Shown: positions 5,640 to 21,582 of the stretch, one piece after another
Layout of the letters: each line of letters opens with the position of its first letter
Position numbering within the stretch: the first letter of the stretch is position 1
NCBI GenBank assembly: GCA_964594735.1
Contig: CAZQMS010000001.1
Span: 1-60,522, forward strand
DNA: 60,522 nt
Direction of reading: 5' to 3'
Origin: an uncultured Candidatus Saccharibacteria bacterium
Lineage (GTDB): Bacteria > Patescibacteriota > Minisyncoccia > Phycocordibacterales > UBA2100
Program-made: the position numbers and the translations under genes
The notes under the pieces: generated by a model
Told to the model about the DNA's origin: nothing
The model's database searches: none
The model's input: the letters and a program-made list of their open reading frames with translations, nothing else

Positions 5640-6985
5640 GCGCCAAGGCCGTCTTGTGCAGCTTTCAGGCGCGCTAGAGTTTCCTCCTTGCCGATTGCAG
5701 CTGCGATAGTAAATGGGTCGGGGGACTTCGCTTTGCCTGAAAGCGCGAAGCGCATCGGCCACAAGACCGCTCCCCTCCCCTCGGCTGTAGCGTAATCCCA
5801 CACAGTATTCTTTAGACGTTCATACGAATTATATATTTCACTGTCAGCTTCAGACAAAAGTTCATGAATCCGCGCAAGATGGCGCGACGCAGTCGCCGCA
5901 TCACTCCCCTTGCCCGGCAGCTCGCTTGGCGCAGGCTCAGGCCGTTGGAAGAAGAAGTCCAGCTCACCCTCTTCGGTCATGCGGTCGATGTCGCCCCAGG
6001 TACTGATGCGCTCCTTAAGCGTGGGCAAAATCTTTTGCGCTATCCCCTCTTGAAAGCTCACACCGCGTGCCGCGAGTGCTTTGTGCAGGCGCTCGAGCGC
6101 GTGCGATGCAAATGTGGCGTCGTCGAGCTTCAGGAGGTACTCGCGGTTGTACCAGCGCAGCTTGTCGACATCGAATACCGCGCCGCTCTTGTGGAGGTCC
6201 TCGAGCTCGAACTCCGCGACCATCTCGTCGAGCGAGAGAATCTCTCTACCCGATGGCGGAGTCCAGCCGAGCGTGCCAATGAAATTGAGCAGTGCTTGCG
6301 GCAAGTAGCCTTCTGCGCGGTACTCCTTGACCGCGACGTCGCCTTTTCGCTTGGAGAGCTTCGAGCGGTCTGCGCCAAGAAAGAGCGGGTAGTGCGCGTA
6401 GAGCGGCCGCGCATAGCCAAGTGCCTCTTGAATGAGAATTTGGCGTGGCGTGTTGGAAATGTGTTCCTCGCCGCGTATGACATGGGTCACGCCATTCTCC
6501 GCATCGTCGACGACGACAGAGAGATGGTAGAGCGGGTCGTCTATGGCACGGGCAATGACGAAATCGCCGAGCTCGGTCGTGTCGAATGTAATCTCGCCGC
6601 GCACGATGTCGGAGAATGTCACCACGCTACCCGGATTGCGCAGGCGCACGGGTGCAACCATCACCGCAGGGTCTTTCTTGCTTGACTCCTCGGAGATGTA
6701 CGCTTTTCCCTCCTCGATGAGCTTCTCGAGCGCAGCGGTATACACGGGAGTGCGCTCTGACTGGCGCAGAAATTCGTCCCATTCGAGGCCAAGCCACTTG
6801 ATGCTCTCTATGATGTCCTCTTCAAACTCTGGCGTACTGCGCTCACGGTCGGTGTCTTCGCTTCTGAAGACTATAGTGCCGCCGCGTTTGCGCGCGAAGA
6901 GATAGTTGAGAAGCGCCATGCGTGCGGTGCCCACATGGCAATAGCCCGTCGGGCTCGGCGGGAATCTGACTTTGACGTTGCTCAT
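5636..6985 (-). CDS. gltX: glutamate--tRNA ligase
   Basis: 449 aa. RFPPSPTGYCHVGTARMALLNY (HIGH region) and KLSKR (KMSKS). Confidence 0.95.
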   Translation of the reverse strand: MSNVKVRFPPSPTGYCHVGTARMALLNYLFARKRGGTIVFRSEDTDRERSTPEFEEDIIESIKWLGLEWDEFLRQSERTPVYTAALEKLIEEGKAYISEESSKKDPAVMVAPVRLRNPGSVVTFSDIVRGEITFDTTELGDFVIARAIDDPLYHLSVVVDDAENGVTHVIRGEEHISNTPRQILIQEALGYARPLYAHYPLFLGADRSKLSKRKGDVAVKEYRAEGYLPQALLNFIGTLGWTPPSGREILSLDEMVAEFELEDLHKSGAVFDVDKLRWYNREYLLKLDDATFASHALERLHKALAARGVSFQEGIAQKILPTLKERISTWGDIDRMTEEGELDFFFQRPEPAPSELPGKGSDAATASRHLARIHELLSEADSEIYNSYERLKNTVWDYATAEGRGAVLWPMRFALSGKAKSPDPFTIAAAIGKEETLARLKAAQDGLGA

Positions 6986-8133
6986 ACGGGCTCGTGTTCG
7001 AGTGCTGTCTCGACGATGATAGTGCCTATCTTACGCGCTGCAGCAGGTCGTGCATAGGCCTTGGCCGCTTCGCTCATCTTGGCCATTTTTTCTTTGTCTT
7101 GCATGAGGCGGTCGATTTCCGCAGACAGGATGTGCGAGGTGAGGTTGCGCTGCTCTATCACCACCGCACCCCCTGCGCGCGCGTAGGAAAACGCATTCTC
7201 TGTCTGGTCATGCGAGATGTCCTCAGGAATCGGAACGAGGATGGCGGGAATGCCCCAGCTCGCTATCTCAAAGATGGTGCCGCTCCCTGCCCTCGCGACG
7301 ATGACCGAGGTGATGCCGGCAGCCATGCGTATCGCAAGTGTGTTGAGGAGTCCAAAGGCGCGGTAGTGGTTGTCGGGTGCGTCTTTGAGGACCAGCTTCG
7401 AGACTCCGCTCACCTCTTCGAGATTTGCCGCCCCTGCCTGGTGAATGACATTGTAGCGTTGAACCAGGTCAGGCAGTGCATCAAGTACGGTTTCATTTAT
7501 TTTCTGCGCGCCCTGAGAGCCGCCCATCACCATGACGGTCGGCACACTCGGGTCGAGCTTGAGGAATTCGTGTCCGCCCTCTTTGGCGACTGACTCAATC
7601 TCTTTGCGGATAGGGTGCCCCGTGCGCGCGATGCGGTCACGGACTTTTTCTGGAAAGAACGCAGCGGCTTCTACGTGCGCGAGTGCAATGCGGTGTGCGA
7701 ACTTGCCTGACCAAAGCGAGACGCGGCCAGGCTTTGCATCAGCATCGTAGATGACGACGGGAATGCGCAAGAGTCGCGCTGCGACCAGTGTGGGAAATGC
7801 GGCGTATCCGCCCGAAGAAAAGACGACATCAGGGTACAGCCGATAGAGATGCAGTGTGGAGCGGAATATCCCGAATGCTGATTTGAAGAAATCCCAGATA
7901 TTGAGGGCGCTCGTGTACCGGCGCAGTTTCCCCGCTGGTGATGGATGGTAGATGATGTCGTGTTCTTGAAGTGCTACTTGGTCAAAAGGGGTCGGGCCAA
8001 TGTAGATAAGCTCGGGCTCGATGAGCGTGCGCTCAAGGGATATGTCTTGAATAGCCTGCGCGACCGCGACGAGCGGATAGAAATGGCCTCCGGTGCCTCC
8101 CCCTGCGAGCACAATACGCATATGTCGCCCCAT
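6982..8133 (-). CDS. murG: UDP-N-acetylglucosamine--N-acetylmuramyl-(pentapeptide) pyrophosphoryl-undecaprenol GlcNAc transferase
   Basis: 383 aa. RIVLAGGGTGGHFYP, C-terminal GT28 region. 4-nt overlap with the gltX start. An alternative ATG lies at 8121. Confidence 0.9.
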   Translation of the reverse strand: MGRHMRIVLAGGGTGGHFYPLVAVAQAIQDISLERTLIEPELIYIGPTPFDQVALQEHDIIYHPSPAGKLRRYTSALNIWDFFKSAFGIFRSTLHLYRLYPDVVFSSGGYAAFPTLVAARLLRIPVVIYDADAKPGRVSLWSGKFAHRIALAHVEAAAFFPEKVRDRIARTGHPIRKEIESVAKEGGHEFLKLDPSVPTVMVMGGSQGAQKINETVLDALPDLVQRYNVIHQAGAANLEEVSGVSKLVLKDAPDNHYRAFGLLNTLAIRMAAGITSVIVARAGSGTIFEIASWGIPAILVPIPEDISHDQTENAFSYARAGGAVVIEQRNLTSHILSAEIDRLMQDKEKMAKMSEAAKAYARPAAARKIGTIIVETALEHEPV

Positions 8134-8226
8134 TATGCCACGAAAGATACGAGGCTCTCAGGCGACGCACAGGGCAATCCGATGCCGTGCCCTGGGCACC
8201 TTGCAAAGGGTTCCCCTTTGCAAGCG

Positions 8227-9321
8227 CTAGCTGCGGCGGCGGGAGATACTGAGGAGGATGCCTGCGCTGCCGAGTGAGACGAGCATTGCGGAGCCTCCTT
8301 GGCTGATAAAGGTGAGAGGTACACCCGTAAGCGGGAATGCACCGAGCATGGCACCAATATTGATGAATGCTTCCACGGCTAGGTATGTCGCGATGCCGAC
8401 AGCGAGGAGTGAGCCAAACATATCGGGCGCATGTGTTGCGACCCGATACCCGCGCAGGGCAAAAGCGAGAAACAGAAGCACTATCACCGTCGAGCCTATG
8501 AAGCCGAGCTCCTCTGCGGCGACAGCAAATATCGAGTCGCCCATTGGCTCGGGTAGATACGTAAACTTCTGCACTCCCTGGCCGAAGCCGCGCCCAACGA
8601 GCCCGCCAGAGCCAATCGCGATGAGAGATTGTTTGAGCTGGTATGACTGCGTCTGTTGGTTTTCCCACGGCTTTATAAAGGTCATGATGCGCTCTTTCAC
8701 GTAGGGGCGGAACGTCGCGAGAAGTGCAAGAGAGACGACGCCTATCATGAGTGCTGCAAGTATCTGTTTCCACGAAGCGCCGGCGGCAAAAAATACTGCC
8801 GCTACGGACACGGCGATGATGCCGAGCGTCCCGGTGTCTGGCTGCAGGAGGAGCAGGAGCACCGGCACAGCAAGAATCGCGAGGAAGCCACCAAAACCGT
8901 AGGTAAATGTGCTCACCTTGGTTTTGATAAGGGAAAAGTACGCCGCAGCGAGAATTACAGCAGCGATCTTTATTCCCTCGGATGGTTGGACGGAGAGCGA
9001 GCCGATATGGAGCCAGCGCGTTCCCCCGCCATGCGAAAAGCCTAGGCCTGGTATAAAGACGAGCGCAGTGAGGGCACAGGCAAGAATAAAGAGGTGCGGC
9101 GCGTACTTTCGCCAGATGCGGTAGTCGATGCTCGCGCCTATCGTCATCGCCACGAGTCCGAGCCCGACGCCGAGCACGAGGTGGCTGAAGACAACCGATG
9201 ACATGTGCGACGCGCCGCGCGCGAGGAGGCCGAAAGCAGCCGACGCGAATATCAGTGTGCCGCCCAAGACGAGTATGCCGATGAGGAGTGCAAGCGTTTT
9301 GTCGAGGGAGTGCTTGCGCAT
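8227..9321 (-). CDS. ftsW: SEDS family peptidoglycan glycosyltransferase (FtsW/RodA)
   Basis: 364 aa, about 10 TM segments, conserved LPEPMGDSIFAV and FISQGGSAML. Called ftsW because of its position between mraY and murG. Confidence 0.8.
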   Translation of the reverse strand: MRKHSLDKTLALLIGILVLGGTLIFASAAFGLLARGASHMSSVVFSHLVLGVGLGLVAMTIGASIDYRIWRKYAPHLFILACALTALVFIPGLGFSHGGGTRWLHIGSLSVQPSEGIKIAAVILAAAYFSLIKTKVSTFTYGFGGFLAILAVPVLLLLLQPDTGTLGIIAVSVAAVFFAAGASWKQILAALMIGVVSLALLATFRPYVKERIMTFIKPWENQQTQSYQLKQSLIAIGSGGLVGRGFGQGVQKFTYLPEPMGDSIFAVAAEELGFIGSTVIVLLFLAFALRGYRVATHAPDMFGSLLAVGIATYLAVEAFINIGAMLGAFPLTGVPLTFISQGGSAMLVSLGSAGILLSISRRRS

Positions 9322-9322
9322 G

Positions 9323-10399
9323 TCAGTACGAAAGAGCCGCTATGGCCAAGATGACGCCCGCAAATGAGAATACGACCGAGAGCACCCAATACCGCATGAC
9401 CACTTTTGTCCCAGGCCAGCCGATGGCTTCGAAGTGATGGTGCAGCGGTGCGATGCGGAATATCTTGCGGCCAAATGCCTTTTTCCAGACGAGCTGCAGG
9501 ATGTCGGATGCGACGGTAACGACGAGCAAGAAGCCGATAATCGGCAATACGGCCACCCCCACACCGCCGCCGAGACTGTCGGTCATAAAGGCAATAGTCG
9601 CGAGCGCGAGGGTGAGCCCCATCGTGCCCGTGTCGCTCATGTAAAAGCGCGCAGGTGGAATGTTGAACCACAAAAATGCAAGAAGGCCGCCGACAATAGC
9701 TGCAGAAAACGCCGCGAGGTCTGTCTGCTCCTGGACGAAGGCGATGACTGTGTACGATGCGAAAATTGTAGCGAAGACACCGCCTGAGAGCCCGTCGATA
9801 CCGTCGATGACACCGGATGCATAGAGCGCGAGCGAAAGGAGAATGAAAAACGGCACAACAAATATGCCTATCTCAAGCGGCGCACCAAAAGGTACGTTCA
9901 CCGCTATGACGTCGAGCTTGTCCCAAAACCACCAGCCGATGAATAGCGACAGCAAGAACACGACGAGTAAGCGTACGCGTAGCGAAAGCCCCTGCCCGCC
10001 GGGACGGATGACGTAGAGGTCGTCGATGAGTCCCGCGAGCGCGCCGACGAGGAGCGCTGCAAGCGGTATCCAGGTCTGACTGCGACTAAGGAAGTTGAGC
10101 TGCTCGGCGAGTGGCAGTACTGCAGCGAGTGCTGCGATGCCGAGCGTGGTGAAGAGAACGCTTGCCCATACGACGATGCCTCCCATGCGTGGCGCACGCA
10201 CTTCATTCCCGATATGCAGCCGATTGAATTCTTCTGCGACGCGGCCGTCGTACGCGATTTTGCCCGCACTCTTCTTCCAGGCCTTGTACTTGTAGAGATA
10301 GTGCGTGAGGAGCGGGGTGAGTACGATGCCGATAATGAACGACGCTGCCGCCGGAACAAGGACGCGGACGATATCTGACAACATGCCCTCCATCACCAT
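9323..10399 (-). CDS. mraY: phospho-N-acetylmuramoyl-pentapeptide-transferase
   Basis: 358 aa polytopic protein. Motifs DDL..IR, NVDGLDG-like GIDGLSGG and APLHHHFE. Confidence 0.95.
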   Translation of the reverse strand: MVMEGMLSDIVRVLVPAAASFIIGIVLTPLLTHYLYKYKAWKKSAGKIAYDGRVAEEFNRLHIGNEVRAPRMGGIVVWASVLFTTLGIAALAAVLPLAEQLNFLSRSQTWIPLAALLVGALAGLIDDLYVIRPGGQGLSLRVRLLVVFLLSLFIGWWFWDKLDVIAVNVPFGAPLEIGIFVVPFFILLSLALYASGVIDGIDGLSGGVFATIFASYTVIAFVQEQTDLAAFSAAIVGGLLAFLWFNIPPARFYMSDTGTMGLTLALATIAFMTDSLGGGVGVAVLPIIGFLLVVTVASDILQLVWKKAFGRKIFRIAPLHHHFEAIGWPGTKVVMRYWVLSVVFSFAGVILAIAALSY

Positions 10400-10409
10400 A
10401 TTCTACCCC

Positions 10410-11390
10410 CTATTCTTCGGCTATTGCGGAGAGTGTGCGGTCGACAAGAGCACGCATATCAGTGAAGCGGCCGTCGATGGTCGAGCCCAGTACGATAGCC
10501 ACGACGGGCTGGGATAGGCCGACGTCGAATACAATGCCCAGGTTGCCTCCTGCGAGGTCTGTGAAGCCCGTTTTGCCCATGATAAGGCCTGGGATGTGGC
10601 CCAGAGCCTGGTTGGTGTTGAACGCCGTCGTGGTCTGCCCGGCGGTGTCTGTGAGGAGGAGTCCCCCTCGCGTAGTGCCATCGAATATTTCGGAGTGGAC
10701 GGTAGCCGCGTACGCAAAAAGCTTGGCGACCTCGCGCGCTGTGCCGTACGCACCGCTCTGTGATTCATCGACATCCAGCCCGCTTACGTTGAGAAAATAC
10801 GTACGTGAGAGGCCAAGACTCTTGGCGAGGTCGTTCATGCGCCAGAGCGCGACGGATCCCGGCGTCGACGATGCGTACAGCTTTCCGAGGTCAGCCTCGG
10901 CATACTCTGCGAGTATTTGCGCACTTTCGTTGGACGATGCGACAAGCGCATAATGTAAGACATCGCGGACTTGCCACTTCTCGCCTTTGAGGAGACGCTG
11001 ACCCCCCTCTGTAAATCCCGTGTTGTATGAGATTTCGATTATCATCTCGGGTGCAAGGACTTCAGATACCGCGAGCGCGAGCGGCACTTTCGTAAGTGAG
11101 GCGAGCGGCAATTGCTCGTCCGCATTCTTCTCGAAGAGCACACGACCCGTGTTGAGCTCGACGACAATCGCAGATTTTGCCGCAATAGAAAGTCCGTCGT
11201 ACGCAGTCGGTGCACTCGCCGCGGCAGCCGTCTGTGTGGCTGCAGGCGTGAGCCCATCCATGTAGGTGAATACCATGAAAAATGCCGCGAGACCGAGTCC
11301 CACGAGAGATACAGCGCCTATGATGTGCTGTTTTTGCGAAAGGGGTTCAGTCCCCTCCGGCGGCAGCGGATTCGGTGTTTGTGGTGGCAT
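10410..11390 (-). CDS. D-alanyl-D-alanine carboxypeptidase (S11 penicillin-binding protein)
   Basis: SxxK (ASLTKV), SxN (ASSNES) and KTG (GKTGFT). The ATG at 11390 gives an N-terminal TM anchor. The longer track ORF (to 11570) is Arg/Ser-rich and overlaps scpB. Confidence 0.8.
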   Translation of the reverse strand: MPPQTPNPLPPEGTEPLSQKQHIIGAVSLVGLGLAAFFMVFTYMDGLTPAATQTAAAASAPTAYDGLSIAAKSAIVVELNTGRVLFEKNADEQLPLASLTKVPLALAVSEVLAPEMIIEISYNTGFTEGGQRLLKGEKWQVRDVLHYALVASSNESAQILAEYAEADLGKLYASSTPGSVALWRMNDLAKSLGLSRTYFLNVSGLDVDESQSGAYGTAREVAKLFAYAATVHSEIFDGTTRGGLLLTDTAGQTTTAFNTNQALGHIPGLIMGKTGFTDLAGGNLGIVFDVGLSQPVVAIVLGSTIDGRFTDMRALVDRTLSAIAEE

Positions 11391-11946
11391 GGTCTTCACT
11401 CTCGAACGGACCTGCCTTCTCCTCGAACGCGGCCAATTCGCTCGATATTTTAGCATAATCGGGCAGTTCCTGCGCGCTGCGGACTCCCAAGTGCGCGAGA
11501 AGCTCCACCGTAGGCTGGTAGAGGTATTCGCGGGCGTCCTTGGGGTTGGGGACGCGCTCGAGGAGGCCACGCGCCGCGAGAGTGCGGATTGTCCACGAGG
11601 TGTTGACGCCGCGTATGTAATCTATCTGCGCCCTGGTCGAGGGTCCACGGTAGAGCACGATAGAGAGCACCTCGAGACCCGCGTCGCCTATTTGCTCGCC
11701 GAGCTCGCGCTCAAAGGCCGCCTTGACCGTGGGAGCGGCTTCAGGAGAGACGGCGAGCGCGACATCTTGAGCAGTGGCAATCACAGAGAGCACGCTTCCC
11801 TCTTTGCGTTGAATCAAATCTGCGATGGCGCTCTCGAGCTCGTCGGGCGTGCACGAAAGCAGCTGCGCCAGCTTCTTGCGAGCGACGGGCCCGCCCTCGC
11901 TAAAGAGGAGTGCTTCGAGCTGTGCTGCCGTGTCGATGGTGGTCAT
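11347..11946 (-). CDS. scpB: segregation and condensation protein B
   Basis: 199 aa. LEALLFSEGGPV and winged-helix repeats. Adjacent to scpA. Confidence 0.85.
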   Translation of the reverse strand: MTTIDTAAQLEALLFSEGGPVARKKLAQLLSCTPDELESAIADLIQRKEGSVLSVIATAQDVALAVSPEAAPTVKAAFERELGEQIGDAGLEVLSIVLYRGPSTRAQIDYIRGVNTSWTIRTLAARGLLERVPNPKDAREYLYQPTVELLAHLGVRSAQELPDYAKISSELAAFEEKAGPFESEDHATTNTESAAAGGD

Positions 11947-11950
11947 GGTG

Positions 11951-12676
11951 CTATATGCCGTACCGCGGTACGCCCGTACTCTCCAATTCTATCGTAATAT
12001 CTTCAAAAAGTTTCTCCTGGCTCACACTCGCGGAGCCGCTCCTCACAAGTTCGAGCATGGCCAAGAAGTACACGATGGTGTCGTACTTGTCTTTGGACTT
12101 TGTGAGCTCACTGAAGCGAGCTCTGAACGCGGTAGTGAGGCGTTGCTTGAGGCTGACTATCACGTCTTCCAGCGCGAGGACTGGTGCGACAGCGGCCTTG
12201 GCGAGCTGCTCCGGCTTTGGAAGCATGTTCATGAGTCTCGTTCCCGCAGCAAAGATGCTCTGTACGCTTGATTCCGCGGGAGAGAACACGGGAGGACGCA
12301 GAGGCGCTTTGCGCGGGAGCGCAAGTGGCGCAAGACCCCACTCATGCCGCAGCAGCTTTGCGGCTTTGCGAAAGAGTGCGTAGCGCGCGAGACGTCGCTC
12401 TAATTCTTCGACGGATTCTTTTTCCTCTTCGGAAAGTGTCAGAGTGGGCAGGAGCGTGCGGGATTTGATGAGGAGTAACGTCGAGGCGACGAGAATGAAT
12501 TGCGATGTCTCGGCGAGTGGGAGCTCTGGCAGCTTCTCTACATAGGCAAGGTACGCGTCGGCGACCTCAGCGAGTGATACATCGGTGATGGAAAGCTTGC
12601 GCGACTCGATGAGGTCGAGCAGCGCCTCGAGTGGTCCCTGAAAACGCTCGGTCTCTATGCTAAAACGATTACTCAT
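11951..12676 (-). CDS. scpA: segregation and condensation protein A
   Basis: FQGPLEALLDLIESRKLSITDVSLAEVADAYL. I use the ATG at 12676; the track ORF begins at a GTG at 12688. 8-nt overlap with the aspS stop. Confidence 0.85.
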   Translation of the reverse strand: MSNRFSIETERFQGPLEALLDLIESRKLSITDVSLAEVADAYLAYVEKLPELPLAETSQFILVASTLLLIKSRTLLPTLTLSEEEKESVEELERRLARYALFRKAAKLLRHEWGLAPLALPRKAPLRPPVFSPAESSVQSIFAAGTRLMNMLPKPEQLAKAAVAPVLALEDVIVSLKQRLTTAFRARFSELTKSKDKYDTIVYFLAMLELVRSGSASVSQEKLFEDITIELESTGVPRYGI

Positions 12677-14024
12677 GTTCCTCGCCACCTTCCTCTGAGA
12701 GTAGCTGGTCGATGCGGTGCATATCGCGCGGGAACATGGCCGCTTCGCGGATGTTCTTGAGGTTTAGAATCTGCATCGTCATGCGCTCTGCGCCGAGAGC
12801 AAAGCCACCTTCTGGCGGCGCCCCATAGCGGAAGGCTTCGAGAAACATCTCGATCTTCTTCGGGTCCATCCCCCACATACCTACGTGGTCCATGAGTTGC
12901 GCGTAGTCGTTGATACGACGGCCGCCGGAGAGCCACTCGACGCCGCGGCACAGGAGATCCATGCCTTCATTGAAGTCTGGATTCTCCGGATTCGGGTACA
13001 CATAGAAGGGCTTCTGGCGCGTGGGATAGCCGTAAACGTACACAAAATCCGACCCCGTTTCCTCTTTGAGAATCTCACAGATGGCGCGCTCGTCTTCTGG
13101 GTTGAGGTCTTTCTCGCCGCGTGAATCGCGACCCGTCTTTTGAAAAATCTTCTCTTGAGCTTCGGTGAGAGAGAGCGTCGGCGTCTCCTCAATCATGGTA
13201 GGCAGTGTAGTACCCAGAAGTTCCAGTTCACGAGCGCATTTTTCGCCGACCTGCTGCAAGATGTAGCGAACCGTGTTCTCTGACATGTCACGTACATCGC
13301 GCCACGAATCGATAAAGCTCATTTCGGCGTCGAGGGACACAATCTCGGTGAGGTGTCGCGTTGTGGCGCTCGGCTCCGCGCGGAACACTTTGTTGACGGA
13401 GAATACCCGCTCGAATGCGGTCATCACGATTTGCTTGTAGAGCTGGGGCGACTGCGTGAGGTAGGCCTTCTTATCGAAATACTTAACCTCGAATACTTCA
13501 GCACCTCCTTCGGCGGTCGCAGGAGCAATAGCCGGCGCTTGGAATTCGAAAAAGCGCTGCGACTTCATGTATTCTCGGAAGGAATCAATGATGACCGCCT
13601 GGACTTTGAAGATGGCTTGCAGGCGCGGATGACGCAGCGTCAGCGCACGGTGGTCGAGCTCTGTGGGGAGGTCGAGGTTGAATCCGTCGAGCGACATGTC
13701 GAATGGCAGTGGCTCTGCCTTCGCGAGCACCGTGAGCTGCAGGACTTCTAGCTCGATATCACCGTTTTGTACTTTCGCATTCTTGTTCTTCTCCGGTCGC
13801 TCATTGACCTTGCCCTCTATGGCCACGACGTACTCGAGTCGCGTCTCCTTGGCTATCTCTATGGCCGCGCTCGAAGGAAGCACGACACCCTGGACGGTGC
13901 CTGTCATGTCGCGGAAATCAAAAAAAACCATTTTCCCTTGGTCGCGGCGCACCGACACCCATCCCTTGATGAGCACGGTCTCCCCTATCATTTTGCCGAG
14001 GTCTTCGATGTATGTTCTTTGCAT
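12669..14024 (-). CDS. aspS: aspartate--tRNA ligase, short (archaeal/type-2) form; AsnRS not fully excluded
   Basis: 451 aa class IIb enzyme. N-terminal OB fold (VRRDQGKMVFFDFRD), FRAEPSATTRHLTE and GGFALGAERM. The SGGRRIN motif favours AspRS over AsnRS. Confidence 0.75.
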   Translation of the reverse strand: MQRTYIEDLGKMIGETVLIKGWVSVRRDQGKMVFFDFRDMTGTVQGVVLPSSAAIEIAKETRLEYVVAIEGKVNERPEKNKNAKVQNGDIELEVLQLTVLAKAEPLPFDMSLDGFNLDLPTELDHRALTLRHPRLQAIFKVQAVIIDSFREYMKSQRFFEFQAPAIAPATAEGGAEVFEVKYFDKKAYLTQSPQLYKQIVMTAFERVFSVNKVFRAEPSATTRHLTEIVSLDAEMSFIDSWRDVRDMSENTVRYILQQVGEKCARELELLGTTLPTMIEETPTLSLTEAQEKIFQKTGRDSRGEKDLNPEDERAICEILKEETGSDFVYVYGYPTRQKPFYVYPNPENPDFNEGMDLLCRGVEWLSGGRRINDYAQLMDHVGMWGMDPKKIEMFLEAFRYGAPPEGGFALGAERMTMQILNLKNIREAAMFPRDMHRIDQLLSEEGGEEHE

Positions 14025-15897: not shown

Positions 15898-17532
15898 TCA
15901 ACCGTGTCGAATGCCGGTGACCGGAAGCTCGACCGTGAAGCGTGAGCCCTTGTCCTTGCCATCAGACTCTGCCCAGATGCGCCCACCATGCCCTTCGACA
16001 ATGGTTTTCGCTATGAAGAGTCCGTAGCCCGTCGAGTGGACGTTGATTTTCACTGACTCGGCTCCCTTGCCGCCTTCGGTGAATAGATTCTTCATGTCTT
16101 CCGCGGTTATGCCGACGCCAGTGTCGCTCACAAGGAGCCGCACAATGCCGGCGCTTCGTTTGAGTTCCACGTGCACACTTCCATGGAGCGTGTAATTGAT
16201 GGAATTCTCTACGAGGTTGCGAAGCACATGTCGTCGGAGCTTGTCTTCATCGCCGAGAATCAGAAACTCTCCCTGCGGTGCCGCAAAGAAAAGTTGGAGC
16301 CCGCGTGCGCGCGCAGCTGGTGCGAGGCTCGAAACAACATCGTCGACCGCTTTCGCAAAGTCGAACTGTCGCTTCGCAAATGAGACTGTGCCCCGCTTCA
16401 AATTCGACGCATCCAGAATATCGATAACTGTATCGACTCCCTTGCGCACGTCAGTCAGCGCAAGACCCGACATCTCATGGAGCTTCGGCGAGACTTGCCC
16501 ATAATCGCCCGAGAATATGGCGGCGAAAGCTGCCTCGCTTTTTGTAAGATACCCCTTCACCTCATGGCTGATGAAGTGCAAGAGACTCTCCTGTTGCCTA
16601 TTGGCCTCCCCGAGTTCTTCCGCCTGCTTCTGAATAATTTCCCGCTGCTCGACTTCCCTACGCACACTCTGAACAAGAAAATAACCAAAGATTCCCACAA
16701 ACAGAAAGATAAGAGCGTCAACGACTGCAGCTTCGACAGTTCTCTCGGTAAAAATCTTCGCGAATAGGACTACGCAAATGGCAAGCGTAATCGCCTGTGT
16801 CACGAGTACTTTGATATTAAAAAGCTGATATTTCGTAATCGCGTATGCCGTAAGCCCGAGAAATACAAGTGTGTACAGTGGCGTAAAGGGTAAGAACACA
16901 AGCGAGTTGAAGAACAGGACCGGGACGAGAATAGTGAGAGTGATGAGGGCAAGCATCAAGAGTATTCCTAGCAAAACGGAACCGAGCTGCCGTCTTGTTA
17001 CCTCAGTTCCCTTTAGGTACTTCTTCAAAAGCAAGTACACGGCGAGTACACTAAAGAGAGTAGAAACAATAGAAAAGGGGGCAAGGCCTGGCCCTGGGGT
17101 GAGTTGAATCGCACCATTTGATAATTCCACGCCTGTAAAAGCAAACGGCGACAGGTTGAGAATCATCATGGCAACTGTAGCGCCCAGTACTGAGTAATAT
17201 GAGCGCTTCGACAGCTGAATCTTTCTATGGGGTATCGTGTGGGCGAGAAGAAAGAAAAGTGCGCTCATCGGTGCTGCGAAAAAAATGCCAAATCGACCGA
17301 CGAGCAATGTGAGTTCTGAATATTGAGAATATATTGATATATGGCCAGTTATGTAATTATTCAGAAGCCAGAGCGATGTAGTGATGCTCAGCATTACGAA
17401 AATGACATTAGTTGCACTTTTTGAATCGCTACGGAAAACCCCGTACGCCAAAAACCCGTTCGTTACGAGTGCTACGACTAGCAGCACCAGCTCAAGAGAC
17501 GGGCTCAAAAGCATGAGGCCGGGAATATTCAT
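15898..17532 (-). CDS. sensor histidine kinase with N-terminal 7TM sensor domain
   Basis: 544 aa, about 7 TM helices. H-box FISHEVKGYL, N/G boxes (NLVENSINYT, DTGVGI, GYGLFIAKTIVEGHGG). The TM-coding part is only about 33-42% GC by spot count. No response regulator lies nearby. Confidence 0.85.
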   Translation of the reverse strand: MNIPGLMLLSPSLELVLLVVALVTNGFLAYGVFRSDSKSATNVIFVMLSITTSLWLLNNYITGHISIYSQYSELTLLVGRFGIFFAAPMSALFFLLAHTIPHRKIQLSKRSYYSVLGATVAMMILNLSPFAFTGVELSNGAIQLTPGPGLAPFSIVSTLFSVLAVYLLLKKYLKGTEVTRRQLGSVLLGILLMLALITLTILVPVLFFNSLVFLPFTPLYTLVFLGLTAYAITKYQLFNIKVLVTQAITLAICVVLFAKIFTERTVEAAVVDALIFLFVGIFGYFLVQSVRREVEQREIIQKQAEELGEANRQQESLLHFISHEVKGYLTKSEAAFAAIFSGDYGQVSPKLHEMSGLALTDVRKGVDTVIDILDASNLKRGTVSFAKRQFDFAKAVDDVVSSLAPAARARGLQLFFAAPQGEFLILGDEDKLRRHVLRNLVENSINYTLHGSVHVELKRSAGIVRLLVSDTGVGITAEDMKNLFTEGGKGAESVKINVHSTGYGLFIAKTIVEGHGGRIWAESDGKDKGSRFTVELPVTGIRHG

Positions 17533-17539
17533 ACCTCTA

Positions 17540-18610
17540 TTATGACAGAATAATCGGCGCGTGCTTAAAGGACTCTACAGTTTTTCGCGTGGGTAGACCA
17601 ATCCGAAACATCATGCCGATTGATTCGTTGCCGACCAAGTAAAAGGAACGGGCGATTGTCGAATAGGATTCGGTTATCATCGAAGCGTGCTCTGCTGTGA
17701 ATGTGCGCGTATCCCCTGCCCGCAATCGCTGCTCGAGGTACACAATTGCCGCTGTCGGCTGAATCGCAAGGCCCATACGCGTCGCAGTAAGCCACACGCG
17801 CTGAAGAGCTCGCCCAATGGCAAAAAAATCCGCATCGTTCTCCCCAGGGAGAATCAGTGCTCCAAAGGCAGATGAGGCAGTATAAATCGGCGCCGTTTGT
17901 TCGGGTATCTTTTTTGAAAAACCAATCCGGTTCATCATTTGTAAAAGCTTCCATGACCGCAAGACGGTGCGAAAAAGTACTTCCACCGGCAATGGTAAGT
18001 CCATTGTGCGAATGTACATGCCAGGTGTTCGTCGCTCAGCACGTCGAGAGAAGCGAATCATACCGAAAAGACCATCGTGCAGTCCGCGGTGCTCCATGAG
18101 AATGCGTTCGTTGACACTTACGGCGCGAGCCAATGTGCGCACTTCGTCCTTCGAATTGGCGAGTTTAAGAGCAATCCCAACATCGCGTGCCGCACCCTCC
18201 AGAGCGTGAATCTGATCGGGAGTCAGGGGGTCAGTTTTGTATGGCGCGCGATTCGTGCTACGTAGCGAAACAAACTCAGCAAGAGAATCAGGTTTATCGG
18301 CTGCTACTGAGAGTGTAATTCTTGCTACGCATCCTTCGGCTCCGTCGGGAAATGCCCGCACGCCAGCTGCGTACCCGAGATGTGTCGCCAAAATCCGGAT
18401 ATTCTCTGCCACCGCGCCAATCGCTAGGATGGAGCCACGTTCGCGGAAATTGTAGGGAGTAGAGTCTGCATCTTGGACATTCCAGATCTCTATGGAATCT
18501 TTACTACACGTAAACCTCCAGGGCTGTGCATTGTCACCTGACGGTGCGTTGACCGCTTCTTCGAGCACTTGCCGCATCTCTGTGGGAGACATGCTCATAT
18601 GTATATACAT
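17540..18610 (-). CDS. double-domain nitroreductase-fold FMN oxidoreductase (Acg/Rv3131-like)
   Basis: 356 aa. APSGDNAQPWRF near the N-terminus and a second nitroreductase-like half. Stops 7 nt before the kinase start. Alternative ATGs at 18598 and 18592. Confidence 0.7.
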   Translation of the reverse strand: MYIHMSMSPTEMRQVLEEAVNAPSGDNAQPWRFTCSKDSIEIWNVQDADSTPYNFRERGSILAIGAVAENIRILATHLGYAAGVRAFPDGAEGCVARITLSVAADKPDSLAEFVSLRSTNRAPYKTDPLTPDQIHALEGAARDVGIALKLANSKDEVRTLARAVSVNERILMEHRGLHDGLFGMIRFSRRAERRTPGMYIRTMDLPLPVEVLFRTVLRSWKLLQMMNRIGFSKKIPEQTAPIYTASSAFGALILPGENDADFFAIGRALQRVWLTATRMGLAIQPTAAIVYLEQRLRAGDTRTFTAEHASMITESYSTIARSFYLVGNESIGMMFRIGLPTRKTVESFKHAPIILS

Positions 18611-18700
18611 AGTATATAATGCCCAGCAAATATGGGTACAAGCGACCGCACTGGTGTACCAGCCGTAGCGAGCCTGCCCGTCGAGCGACGCGGATTTTCA

Positions 18701-20098
18701 ATGGCGCTCAATCTCTTCCATGAGGCAGCGCGGCGCGTGCCCGCGTATGCAAGATTCTTAAAAAAGCAGAAAATCCGGCCGGATTCAATCAGGACGAAAT
18801 CTGATTTCGACCAGATTCCCCTGATAGATAAAAACAACTACGTCTCACTGAACTCATTGGAAGACATGAGCTGGGATGGGACGCTCGACATGGCGCGTTA
18901 CGTATCGACTAGCTCAGGGTCGACTGGTATGCCCTATTTCTGGCCGCGCGGGCTGGCACAGGATGTTATAGCTGGCTCGATAATGCGCAAAGTCCATGAG
19001 GATATATTCGACTCCAAGCGCGGCACGACGCTCTTTGTTGATTCCTTTGCGCTCGGGACATGGATTGCGGGTCTAGAGTTTTATAATGCCGCACGATGGA
19101 CGGCAGACGCGGGTAGCAAGATAGTCATCACTACTCCAGGTATAGACAAGACAGAAGCCATTAATCAAATCAAAAGGTTGGCTAGTTCGTTCTCCCGCAT
19201 AGTTCTTGGCGGTTACCCGCCATTTATCAAAGACATCATCGAGCAAGGCACCATATCAGGCATTGTTTGGAAAGATATTGATATGCGACTTCTCTTTGCG
19301 GGTGAAGCGGTTAGTGAGTTTTGGAGGAGCAGAGTGCTGGAGCTGATTGGCAAGAGGGACGATTACTTTGCGTCGGTCAACGTATACGGCATGGCTGATA
19401 TTGGAGTAGTGGCGCACGATACCCCGCTTTCTTGCATGGTACGCAGACATCTCCCCGCATCTAGAGATAACGAAATTCCCGCTTCTTCAGAGGTGCTTGG
19501 CATGTATCAATACGATCCGGCGCGTCGATACTTCCAAGTGGTCGGAGAGTCATCCATTATTATTACCGCCAACTCTGGCTTGCCACTCATCCGCTACGAC
19601 ACGAGGGATAGCGGCGGCATTCTCGGACGTGAGGCCGTGGTGGAGCGAATGCCAAGTACATTCTTCGACGAGGCAAGGAAGCACAAAATTAGTCTCAACG
19701 GCTGGAAAATCCCGTTCGTGTACCTGCACGGAAGAAAGGACCTCTCCATATCGCTGTATGCACTTAACATCTATGTAGAGAACATCAAACATGCGCTCGA
19801 ACGCTCGCTATTCAACGACTTGCTTTCGGGGCTATTCATAATGCAGGTAGGACACACAGATAATCTAGACCAGCAATTCGAAATTACTATCGAGCTAGCA
19901 CGTGATTCGGAGCCAAGTGTGGCACTTACAGAGTCACTCGTAAAGGAAATAGTCGAGAATCTATGCAAGTTAAATTCTGAATATGCGAAACTGCATTCCG
20001 TAGTCGGTGCCCGCGCGCTACCTAAGGTCAGACTGGTGCGATATGGAGAAATAGACACAATACCCGGCAGGAAGCACAAGTGGGTAAGGAAAACCTAA
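18701..20098 (+). CDS. adenylate-forming enzyme, phenylacetate-CoA ligase / coenzyme F390 synthetase-like (PaaK/CapK family)
   Basis: The track ORF starts at 18632; the ATG at 18701 (MALNLFHEAARRVPAYARFL) is the more likely start. AMP-binding-like motif STSSGSTGMPYFWPRG. 465 aa from 18701. Confidence 0.65.
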   Translation: MALNLFHEAARRVPAYARFLKKQKIRPDSIRTKSDFDQIPLIDKNNYVSLNSLEDMSWDGTLDMARYVSTSSGSTGMPYFWPRGLAQDVIAGSIMRKVHEDIFDSKRGTTLFVDSFALGTWIAGLEFYNAARWTADAGSKIVITTPGIDKTEAINQIKRLASSFSRIVLGGYPPFIKDIIEQGTISGIVWKDIDMRLLFAGEAVSEFWRSRVLELIGKRDDYFASVNVYGMADIGVVAHDTPLSCMVRRHLPASRDNEIPASSEVLGMYQYDPARRYFQVVGESSIIITANSGLPLIRYDTRDSGGILGREAVVERMPSTFFDEARKHKISLNGWKIPFVYLHGRKDLSISLYALNIYVENIKHALERSLFNDLLSGLFIMQVGHTDNLDQQFEITIELARDSEPSVALTESLVKEIVENLCKLNSEYAKLHSVVGARALPKVRLVRYGEIDTIPGRKHKWVRKT

Positions 20099-21090
20099 GG
20101 TAGCGGGCTTGCAAGTAAGGAGCTTGTGTCAATGAGGTAGCGACCGGACGGCATGTCAGCACCTGTTAAGATACGGCGCGCCGCGTACGCGACGGCTGCG
20201 CCGGTCGTTGCAGCTGCGGTGCCGAGTTGTGGAATTCCGGCGAGTGATACACCAACGCGAACAACAGACTCCGCCTGCCGCAAGCTAAATAGTGCCGGAT
20301 TAATAATCTGGGCGGCAATCCTGCTAAACTCTTCGCGTGAAGTCGGATTGAGATTTAAACTACTATCAACACGTCCGTGGAATAAGGCACGTCCCGGCTC
20401 CGTATCGAATCTCTCTACGTCCAGGATGACGCCGTCCCCATTGTCGGTACCCATGACGACCGGTATCTTCCGTCGCTTGCATTCCTCGCGCAGTGCAAAT
20501 TTGAGCGGGATTGAGTCCATTTCATCAATAACTATATCCAGCTCCTCAACAAACTTTCCGATTGTGCTTGCACTGATGCCACCGTCCCAGACATCAATGT
20601 CTGCAAACGGATCAATCTCCCACGCGCGTTTCGCGGCAACTTCAGCTTTATGCAGTCCGACATCGACAAGCCTTGCCTTAATTCGATTTAGGTTTGTAAT
20701 CTCTATTGTGTCCGGGTCTGCTACGCGAAGCCTTTTGGGTCCGCCAGTGATGGTAAGTGATTCCAATACGGCGGATCCAACGGACAAGCCGGCGATACCG
20801 ACGAATCCGTCACGGTACCTAGATTGCTCAACCGCTGTAATAATGTCGCGGTTGCGTGCTGTGCGAAGCAGAAAATACGTTCGCTCCGAGGGTGTGTGCA
20901 CGGCTGCGTCGAGCCAAGGATAGAAGACCCATACGCTATCGAACTCTGCAGGAAGCGAGGTATCGAAGACCCTAAGCTTTTGAAGCTCGCTTTGGGCAAT
21001 GGTGATAGTATCGACGCGTGCTGCTCCGGCTGGGATATCGGATTCCAGTTCAAAGATAATTGGCGGCGTAGTCATGTGCGCATTATGCAT
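20095..21090 (-). CDS. ThiF/E1-like adenylyltransferase (Rv1355c N-terminal-domain-like)
   Basis: 331 aa. Rossmann GIAGLSVGSAVLESL, RLRVADPDTIEITNLNR and VVMGTDNGD. Its stop overlaps the convergent ligase stop by 4 nt. Confidence 0.7.
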   Translation of the reverse strand: MHNAHMTTPPIIFELESDIPAGAARVDTITIAQSELQKLRVFDTSLPAEFDSVWVFYPWLDAAVHTPSERTYFLLRTARNRDIITAVEQSRYRDGFVGIAGLSVGSAVLESLTITGGPKRLRVADPDTIEITNLNRIKARLVDVGLHKAEVAAKRAWEIDPFADIDVWDGGISASTIGKFVEELDIVIDEMDSIPLKFALREECKRRKIPVVMGTDNGDGVILDVERFDTEPGRALFHGRVDSSLNLNPTSREEFSRIAAQIINPALFSLRQAESVVRVGVSLAGIPQLGTAAATTGAAVAYAARRILTGADMPSGRYLIDTSSLLASPLP

Positions 21091-21096
21091 GCTCCA

Positions 21097-21582
21097 TCAG
21101 CGCCGCACCATCGCCAGGGCGAAATAGGCGCCTATGAGCCAGAATAGGCGGTAGGCGTTGCCGAATACAGAGGAAAAGGTGCTGCCGAAGTCCCACGGGA
21201 CAGTTTCTGCGGGCAATTGGAGTAGCACGATAATGCACACAGCTGCGCTCGCGAGCCCCGCAATGAGTGCCTGCATGGGGTGCAGTGAATCGATGCCTGT
21301 GTCGAGCAATCGGTAGAGTGCGATGAAAAGCCCTATGCAGAGCAAAATGAAAACGCCTGTCTGTACTGCCGGCGCTGCTTGTGCCACGAATGCCCCGATG
21401 AATGCGGTGCTCCCGATGCTACTCGATAGAAAGAGTGCAATCGGAAGCGCGAGAGAGAGTGCGGCAACTCGTGCAGGCCCGGCGCGGAGTGCATCAAATG
21501 TGAGAAACAGCGCAAGGCCACCGAAGATTATCCAATCGGCTGAAAGCGCGGGAAGGTATGCGGTAATGCTACCGAGGTCCAC
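21097..21582 (-). CDS. hypothetical membrane protein (about 4-5 TM)
   Basis: 161 aa with a GTG start 8 nt after the dnaJ stop. Uniformly hydrophobic. 7 nt upstream of the ThiF-like start. Confidence 0.5.
   Translation of the reverse strand: MDLGSITAYLPALSADWIIFGGLALFLTFDALRAGPARVAALSLALPIALFLSSSIGSTAFIGAFVAQAAPAVQTGVFILLCIGLFIALYRLLDTGIDSLHPMQALIAGLASAAVCIIVLLQLPAETVPWDFGSTFSSVFGNAYRLFWLIGAYFALAMVRR

Follow-up and report, generated by a model that had tools for sequence, protein, structure and literature searches.

Rv1355c of Mycobacterium tuberculosis, now named TrzS, carries out the ATP-dependent cyclization and the O2-dependent, flavin mononucleotide (FMN)-linked desaturation that convert an N-acyl-tryptophan to a tryptazolone, and its partner TrzA (Rv1356c) is an acyl-CoA:tryptophan N-acyltransferase (CoA, coenzyme A) (Kleetz et al., J Biol Chem 2025, PMC12856293). 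A ThiF-nitroreductase oxazolone synthetase is likewise known from Pseudoalteromonas rubra as OxzB (de Rond et al., bioRxiv 10.1101/2020.06.11.147165; review PMC12596934), and in M. tuberculosis TyzB and TyzC together make up a split oxazolone synthetase (PMC10404671). For TrzS, OxzB, and TyzBC, the chemistry has been demonstrated by experiment. The physiological role of bacterial oxazolones is considered an open question by the groups that discovered them (PMC12856293). Here, we describe a cassette of four genes in a 60,522-nt stretch of DNA (the window, to which all coordinates refer) from an uncultured Candidatus Saccharibacteria bacterium of the Candidate Phyla Radiation (CPR). The cassette encodes apparent counterparts of the two halves of TrzS, a ligase of the PaaK fold, and a seven-transmembrane (7TM) sensor histidine kinase. 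We found no published description of such a system, and full-text searches returned no paper tying oxazolones to Patescibacteria or to histidine kinases.

The four genes are tightly packed, and all gaps in the region are at most 33 nt. The gene for the sensor histidine kinase (15898-17532, minus strand, 544 aa) lies 7 nt from that for a predicted Acg-type nitroreductase-fold flavin oxidase (17540-18610, minus strand, 356 aa). The gene for the PaaK-fold adenylating enzyme of the ANL superfamily (18632-20098, plus strand, 488 aa) diverges from the oxidase gene and converges on the gene for a putative ThiF-like ATP-dependent cyclase (20095-21090, minus strand, 331 aa), with which it shares a 4-nt stop-stop overlap (20095-20098). 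An earlier note on this DNA, made from the letters and their open reading frames (ORFs), had described the four ORFs with their motifs, the 7-nt gap, the divergence, and the overlap, and all of these were confirmed from the ORF list and the sequence.

That note had also proposed a split Rv1355c-like pair, and the match proved exact: the ThiF-like protein aligned with positions 39-340 of the NCBIfam model of the Rv1355c family (NF005901, 722 positions; E 5e-85, 286 bits) and the nitroreductase-fold protein with positions 373-711 (E 1.5e-52, 179 bits). Rv1355c itself, taken in the note as uncharacterized, is the N-acyl-tryptazolone (oxazolone) synthetase TrzS (PMC12856293). For the ThiF-like protein, the next-best model reached 65 bits (E 6e-18), and Pfam assigned a ThiF domain to the 331-aa protein. 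The motifs WVYYPW, DVERFD, and PQLG are common to this protein and the fused enzymes. In an alignment of 19 CPR ThiF proteins and five fused enzymes, G101 and G105 of the glycine loop, D125, N133, N135, R136, K148, and D192 were invariant in all 24 sequences, and the family-specific E226-R227-x-D229 (ERxD) motif was likewise invariant, fused enzymes included. The conserved residues align with the ATP-site motifs of TcdA, the ct6A (oxazolone-forming) dehydratase, which is also the nearest solved structure (E 5e-12). The elements of an adenylation site are thus all in place: glycine-rich loop, ribose aspartate, NxNR, lysine, and the aspartate of the DxxD motif. This last aspartate probably corresponds to D217 of TrzS, an equivalence that is based on the motif, no alignment to the M. 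smegmatis protein being involved. The protein contains a single cysteine (C204) and no CxxC motif, and thus has neither an E1-type thioester site nor a Zn site. Judged by its sequence, the ThiF-like protein is the counterpart of the N-terminal half of TrzS/Rv1355c.

The second member of the pair matched the Acg family model NF047509 as well (E 4e-43, 148 bits), while Pfam recognized only an N-terminal nitroreductase motif in the 356-aa protein. The segment SGDNAQPWRF spans residues 24-33. The AlphaFold2 (AF2) model had a predicted local distance difference test (pLDDT) score of 94.5, and its best match in the PDB was 2YMV, the M. smegmatis Acg homologue (template modeling scores 0.72/0.78, E 3e-14); the same structure was reported as nearest to the oxidase domain of TrzS (PMC12856293). 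Residues S24, N27, Q29, P30, W31, G65, R117, G197, and G266 were invariant across the CPR and fused homologues. With regard to the FMN-binding residues raised in the earlier note, the general nitroreductase FMN motifs APSxxNxQPW and RxTNR are present and invariant, and the glutamine of the 'QP' motif (GLAIQP) is kept in both window-type and fused forms. The true start of the protein may be Met5 (18598) or Met7 (18592). We predict from these matches that it is a flavin-dependent oxidase, the counterpart of the C-terminal (desaturase) half of TrzS/Rv1355c.

Placing the enzyme encoded between the two halves required a fold search. It had no Pfam match, AMP-binding included, and belongs to a family without a Pfam model; against the PaaK model TIGR02155 it scored 28 bits (cutoff 646), and, compared by sequence with the PDB, it matched nothing better than a PaaK-type ligase at E 0.14. 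No paa genes were found near it in the ORF list of the window. Foldseek with the AF2 model (pLDDT 88.5) returned PaaK1, PaaK2, and BT_0428 as best matches (2Y27, 2Y4O, 4R1M; E about 1e-23, probability 1.0), which bears out the PaaK-like adenylating enzyme named in the earlier note; the amide/ester ligase ClxA followed (E 1e-16). The motifs expected of an ANL enzyme are conserved, namely the SSGSTGxP loop, GYPPF, YGMAE, RYxTRD, the GRKD hinge, and KHKW with the C-terminal lysine; the segment STSSGSTGMPYFWPRG corresponds to residues 92-107. Two PaaK-fold enzymes, ClxA and NatL2, pass the acyl-adenylate straight to an amine or a hydroxyl without CoA (PMC12519233, PMC7204872), and direct amide formation thus has a precedent within this fold.

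The ligase family is large: there were 161 word-indexed matches, and an exhaustive profile search with a limit of E≤1e-30 recovered 1034 representative clusters. In a maximum-likelihood tree, all 53 non-CPR sequences (Cyanobacteria, Chloroflexota, Nitrospirota, Actinomycetota, and others) formed one clade with 100/100 support, and the remainder were deep, long-branched Patescibacteria sequences linked to ThiF. The non-CPR ligases showed 34-37% identity. In Cyanobacteria (L019, L022, L025, L031, L038-L045, and others; Nostocales and Microcoleus), the ligase gene lies divergent next to one or two Ser/Thr protein kinase genes (Pkinase, 560-750 aa), which is a second, independent tie of the ligase family to signaling kinases.

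The kinase of the window matched HisKA_7TM (PF16927) over residues 17-240 (E 1.4e-10, 41.9 bits; cutoff 28.6) and HATPase_c (PF02518; E 1.5e-22, 80.6 bits). It has about eight hydrophobic segments within residues 1-290 and an H-box histidine, His323, in the sequence FISHEVKG, and its ATPase core is complete. The protein lacks a receiver domain, and tblastn found no receiver domain in the 60-kb window; response regulators consisting of a receiver only, without a DNA-binding output, were present in 12 of 34 related cassettes.

Co-inheritance of the four genes was examined from two sides. In a ligase-side scan (one genome per species, 80 loci; tblastn and ORF clustering), ThiF accompanied the ligase in 27 of the 28 Patescibacteria loci, the exception being a 2.1-kb contig that still carries the 7TM kinase; the nitroreductase was present in about 22 of these loci and the kinase in about 24. 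A ThiF-side metagenome scan with a narrow alignment yielded 34 loci in which ThiF has flanks of at least 1.6 kb on each side; these contained the ligase in 32 cases, the nitroreductase in 33, the 7TM kinase in 29, and a response regulator in 12. Where the flanks extended to at least 4 kb (n=22), the corresponding counts were 20, 22, 21, and 9. The co-occurrence of ligase, ThiF, and nitroreductase in related genomes, raised as a check in the earlier note, was thus observed. Across dozens of diverged genomes, the cassette adopts at least six gene orders, and the genes flanking it vary. The four genes are a real module, and their adjacency is far beyond chance.

Gene fusions add to this picture. 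The ligase profile search recovered a ligase-ThiF fusion (863 aa), a ThiF-ligase fusion (880 aa), and a fusion of a ScyB-like dehydrogenase to the ligase (847 aa); a fourth protein joins ScyB-like dehydrogenase, ligase, and ThiF in one chain (1242 aa; L170 5001-8729 and L171 819-4547). The fusion proteins are P0275, P0280, P0318, and P0363 in our set. Identical copies of the triple fusion come from two independent assemblies, and its gene lies between a nitroreductase gene and genes for an alpha/beta-hydrolase and a HisKA_7TM kinase. The fusion is strong evidence for successive action of its three enzymes, dehydrogenase, ligase, and ThiF, on a single substrate.

Three cassettes carry, in the ligase slot between ThiF and nitroreductase, an unrelated conserved protein of 340-370 aa (L100 9107-10186, L155 9042-10064, and L160 1808-2917; two of the three loci are well flanked). 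It had no Pfam, NCBIfam, or PDB-profile match, a homologue search returned 18 unnamed proteins only, and hhalign found no match between it and the ligase or the partners of fused enzymes. The protein may be an alternative first-step enzyme, which is consistent with a replaceable first-step slot.

The nature of the acyl donor is suggested by accessory genes. Some related cassettes include a ScyB-like Trp-type amino-acid dehydrogenase (NF035922, 1e-78) or a class I/II aminotransferase, and one includes an FkbO/Hyg5 chorismatase (TIGR04444, 1e-51). Since such enzymes make aryl-pyruvates or hydroxybenzoates, the donor is probably an aromatic or α-keto acid and not a fatty acid. The cassette of the window has no accessory enzymes, and the acid that it uses has presumably been scavenged or is produced elsewhere.

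The homology to both halves of TrzS, in which catalytic and cofactor motifs are preserved, the ligase's PaaK fold, and a linkage that persists through shuffling and is supported by fusions are the observations from which we infer the substrates, the independence of CoA, the product, and the sensing of that product by the kinase. In the first step, the PaaK-fold enzyme would adenylate a carboxylic acid, probably an aromatic or α-keto acid derived from an amino acid, and then, with no need for CoA, transfer the acyl group directly onto an amino acid's amine, so that an N-acyl amino acid is formed. Such a reaction would replace the step catalyzed by OxzA, TyzA, or TrzA, so that the ligase, which the earlier note had seen in the place of a YcaO protein, would instead occupy the slot of the acyl-CoA:amino-acid N-acyltransferase. 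In the second step, the ThiF-like protein would adenylate the carboxylate of the N-acyl amino acid, and the amide oxygen would close the 5(4H)-oxazolone ring. The Acg-type FMN oxidase would then desaturate the Cα-Cβ bond. Finally, the membrane domain of the HisKA_7TM kinase would sense the oxazolone or the dehydro-N-acyl amino acid formed by its hydrolysis, and the output would pass through a receiver-only response regulator encoded elsewhere in the genome.

The confidence we place in these steps differs. TrzS-like cyclase and oxidase chemistry is likely, given the sequence matches to both halves of TrzS. Direct synthesis of the N-acyl amino acid by the ligase is a closer call, with the case for and against it nearly balanced. 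That the kinase senses the product is a tentative proposal, and less likely than not; the near-constant co-inheritance with the 7TM kinase suggests a signaling molecule that is paired with a receptor of its own. The whole reading, by which a Patescibacteria form of the oxazolone (azlactone) pathway is split, begins with a ligase, and is coupled to a sensor kinase, is one to which we give about even confidence. It agrees with the more general idea of the earlier note, in which ATP-dependent activation and oxidation form a single pathway that is connected to the neighboring kinase.

Several points weigh against the oxazolone-kinase reading. The split proteins fall below the whole-protein cutoff of NF005901 (476 bits) both singly, at 286 and 179 bits, and in sum (465 bits), although scores of this size are no lower than expected of a split, diverged form. 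Counterparts of R540 and Q651 of TrzS could not be mapped with certainty in the oxidase. The nearest solved relatives of the ligase are true CoA ligases, and the loci of the non-CPR ligase clade have no ThiF, nitroreductase, or 7TM kinase neighbor, which indicates that the ligase has a function that does not need ThiF or the nitroreductase. In the window, the ligase gene is on the strand opposite to ThiF, nitroreductase, and kinase, and no response regulator, aminotransferase, or dehydrogenase was found within the 60 kb. Finally, adjacency of the kinase is not the same as binding of the product, and regulation by another cue would fit the arrangement equally well.

This last point leads to the alternative that survives best, which keeps the oxazolone chemistry and makes the kinase a regulator of the pathway, responding to an external or envelope cue such as host contact, stress, or a scavenged aromatic acid; in that case, the product would be no signal but a membrane lipid, an antimicrobial, or a stress metabolite. 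We consider it unlikely. In its favor, the window and at least 12 related loci have the cassette directly downstream of dnaK-dnaJ, the gaps being 6-7 nt, and this placement suggests stress-linked transcription. Oxazolones have been tied in the literature to stress and antibiotic induction, related N-acyl tyrosines are antimicrobial, and adjacency alone cannot separate product sensing from pathway regulation. Against it, the regulators that travel with the cassettes are receiver-only proteins with no DNA-binding output, which is atypical for operon control, and the kinase is retained through every rearrangement of the enzyme genes, as is the case for synthase-receptor pairs.

A second alternative concerns the first step only. 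The PaaK-like enzyme could be an ordinary aryl-acid or acyl-CoA ligase feeding an N-acyltransferase encoded elsewhere, so that the pathway would be a canonical OxzAB/TrzAS system with added acid activation. The structural matches to the phenylacetate-CoA ligases PaaK1 and PaaK2 and to BT_0428, together with the weak matches to PaaK models, agree with this view. The distribution of genes does not, and we regard the proposal as quite improbable. No acyltransferase occurs in the cassette of the window or among the conserved genes of the related cassettes examined, and a search with the GNAT-like partner of the fused Bacteroidota enzyme as query detected none in the window or in 84 ligase loci. 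Fusions of ligase and ThiF exist in either order, and one also includes the dehydrogenase, with no transferase between the parts, and in two loci without the ligase another single gene fills its slot. Biosynthesis of CoA and of fatty acids is usually missing from CPR genomes, which also speaks against a CoA ligase.

The ThiF-like protein might instead activate the C terminus of a peptide or protein, in the manner of MccB, PaaA, thiazole/oxazole-modified microcin (TOMM) synthetases, or ubiquitin-like systems, with the nitroreductase oxidizing the modified residue; the enzymes would then belong to an E1-like pathway or one for peptides that are made on the ribosome and then modified (RiPP type). 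ThiF-family enzymes do mostly act on proteins, peptides, or tRNA, and the earlier note had drawn the analogy to TOMM maturation; OxzAB, TyzACB, and TrzAS turned out to be the better analogy. The note had itself seen no YcaO and no obvious precursor peptide, and a Pfam scan of the cluster proteins and a scan of small ORFs agreed with it on both. In the small-ORF scan of 15.5-22 kb, all 115 ORFs of 15-100 aa overlapped real genes and none was mostly intergenic, and no free-standing ORF was either a GG-ended β-grasp protein or rich in Cys, Ser, or Thr; the ideas of a precursor peptide and of a ubiquitin-like protein were therefore dropped. With no room for a small ORF, no CxxC motif beside the single cysteine of ThiF, a specific match to the small-molecule family Rv1355c/TrzS, and accessory enzymes that metabolize amino acids, the peptide or protein C terminus entertained in the note is an unlikely substrate, and the probability of the alternative as a whole is very small. 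Lastly, the view that unrelated genes have met by chance at the end of the dnaK-dnaJ unit, which the alternating strands and the 6-7-nt gaps between dnaJ, a membrane protein gene, and ThiF might suggest, is refuted by 91-100% co-occurrence in both directions in adequately flanked loci of diverged lineages with different neighbors, and by the fusions.

We return to the oxazolone-kinase reading and to the surroundings of the cassette. In the window and six relatives (L001, L002, L003, L005, L007, and L008), the ligase gene is inverted between ThiF and nitroreductase, and the spacers of these seven loci share a conserved element. In the window, the 21-nt divergent spacer (18611-18631, no strand assigned) is overlapped by the box TAGTATATAAT at 18610-18620, whose TATAAT (18615-18620) lies 11 nt 5' of the ligase ATG and whose first base, T18610, falls inside the nitroreductase start codon. 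All seven loci have a -10-like box, TAGTATAAT or TAGTATACT, at a distance of 11-20 nt upstream of the ligase ATG. The boxes of L001 and L007 form a perfect palindrome, ATAGTATACTAT, and can thus be read as a -10 element on both strands. The spacer is a candidate bidirectional promoter that would give near-leaderless transcripts. A generic promoter and terminator scan gave nothing above shuffled expectation: the conserved box was not flagged, and no terminator was found between the convergent ligase and ThiF genes. In one close relative, a 193-aa BRCT-domain gene is inserted between ligase and ThiF (L002/L006, 7483-8064), and the tight convergent junction is thus not obligatory.

As for the chaperone neighborhood, the earlier note had cautioned that ThiF might simply be the tail of the dnaK-dnaJ unit. 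The position directly behind dnaJ, in the window as in the at least 12 related metagenome loci, gives this caution some weight, and ThiF may be co-transcribed with the chaperone genes; it is still a member of the cassette. Between dnaJ and ThiF lies a gene for a multi-pass membrane protein (21097-21582, minus strand, 161 aa) that had no Pfam and no NCBIfam match. In L002, L005, and about nine metagenome loci, a homologue is encoded directly upstream of ThiF, and most other cassettes have none; the gene is possibly an accessory gene of the sub-clade of the window only, and its membership in the cassette is uncertain. A gene for a PyrD-like, quinone-type dihydroorotate dehydrogenase occurs just upstream of several cassettes (L016, L028, L041, and L170), beside the amino-acid dehydrogenase, and could reflect housekeeping synteny or a further redox step.

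The base composition of the cassette was compared with that of the window. The AT-richer patches noticed earlier correspond to a lower GC content (0.50-0.53) and a lower GC content at third codon positions (GC3, 0.52-0.56) in all four genes, against window means of 0.558 and 0.633; relative to the mean of the window genes, z ranges from -0.9 to -1.9 for GC and from -1.2 to -2.0 for GC3. The deviation is real but modest. The low GC3 (by 1.2-2 SD) gives weak support to a recently acquired foreign island; this idea was rejected, as the position behind dnaJ is the same in diverged relatives, which indicates long residence at the site.

Signaling genes recur near related enzymes in other bacteria. 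In M. tuberculosis, trzAS adjoins genes for cyclic di-GMP (c-di-GMP) turnover, and the authors raise a signaling role (PMC12856293). In L086 (Parapedobacter, 6001-12854) and L089 (4500-11518, a Bacteroidota-like contig), a fused oxazolone synthetase gene is preceded by a response regulator and followed by genes for a GNAT-like protein, a 7TMR-DISM kinase, and a hybrid kinase/receiver, with differing flanks; the GNAT-like proteins (235 and 243 aa) show weak GNAT likeness and are 38% identical to each other. In L087 (1341-11591), a fused ThiF-nitroreductase gene is flanked by three GGDEF-EAL genes and a P450 gene. In L085 (4487-8268) and L088 (4268-8364), the start of the fused gene overlaps a preceding gene for a conserved protein of 504 or 578 aa, the two being 36% identical and of no known family, with a weak PilZ match in one. 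The recurring signaling neighbors favor a signaling role for the cassette without proving it.

If the proposed pathway is correct, an oxazolone enzyme pair is tied to a sensor kinase in hundreds of ultra-small bacteria, and the signal hypothesis becomes testable, with a named candidate receptor. A likely job is also proposed for about 1000 representative clusters of adenylating enzymes that make up one unannotated family, and a CoA-independent route to N-acyl amino acids is predicted in organisms thought to be nearly devoid of secondary metabolism. One may go further and suppose a lineage-wide Patescibacteria circuit, in which the CoA-free oxazolone or its hydrolysis product would serve as a labile autoinducer or host-contact signal with the HisKA_7TM kinase as receptor. 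This extension is speculative, and we consider it less likely than not; were it true, it would provide a first physiological role and a first receptor for bacterial oxazolones, host-attached CPR bacteria would have dedicated small-molecule communication, and the Bacteroidota 7TMR-DISM kinases beside canonical oxazolone synthetases would be a parallel case.

Compared with known systems, the cassette has the same pairing as TOMM clusters, an E1-superfamily protein with a nitroreductase-fold FMN dehydrogenase; it differs from them in having no YcaO or precursor peptide, in the full ATP site of its Rv1355c-family ThiF, and in a flavoprotein of Acg type and not SagB type. With ClxA and NatL2 of the closoxazole and nataxazole benzoxazole pathways, the ligase shares a sub-group of the fold at 15-17% identity, whereas those enzymes use aminohydroxybenzoates and have no ThiF or nitroreductase partner. 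In quorum-sensing pairs such as LuxM/LuxN, CqsA/CqsS, and AgrBDCA, biosynthetic genes stand beside a polytopic histidine kinase and are inherited together. The cassette resembles them in pairing putative synthase genes with a kinase that has no large extracytoplasmic domain, while neither the enzymes nor the membrane domain are homologous. Closer are TyzACB (Rv2336-2338c) and OxzAB, with the common logic of an N-acyl aromatic amino acid, ThiF-like cyclization, and nitroreductase-fold desaturation (PMC10404671; 10.1101/2020.06.11.147165). TyzB and TyzC are separate proteins, as in the window, but the first step in these systems is catalyzed by a transferase using fatty acyl-CoA, in contrast to the predicted ATP-dependent ligase and to the aromatic or α-keto acids indicated by the accessory genes of related cassettes. 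Closest is TrzAS of M. tuberculosis, M. smegmatis, and Rhodococcus jostii. The ThiF-like protein and the oxidase of the window are homologous to the two halves of TrzS, whose family gave the best model for both, the ATP-binding and nitroreductase-type flavin-site motifs are retained, and both loci lie beside signaling genes (c-di-GMP turnover in M. tuberculosis, the kinase in the window). The window differs in its CPR host, in having separate genes with an opposite-strand gene between them, in a PaaK-fold ligase in place of TrzA, and in the 7TM kinase within the module. In sum, the cassette fits best as a form of the known oxazolone pathway that is split, has a ligase in the acyltransferase slot, and is joined by a 7TM kinase.

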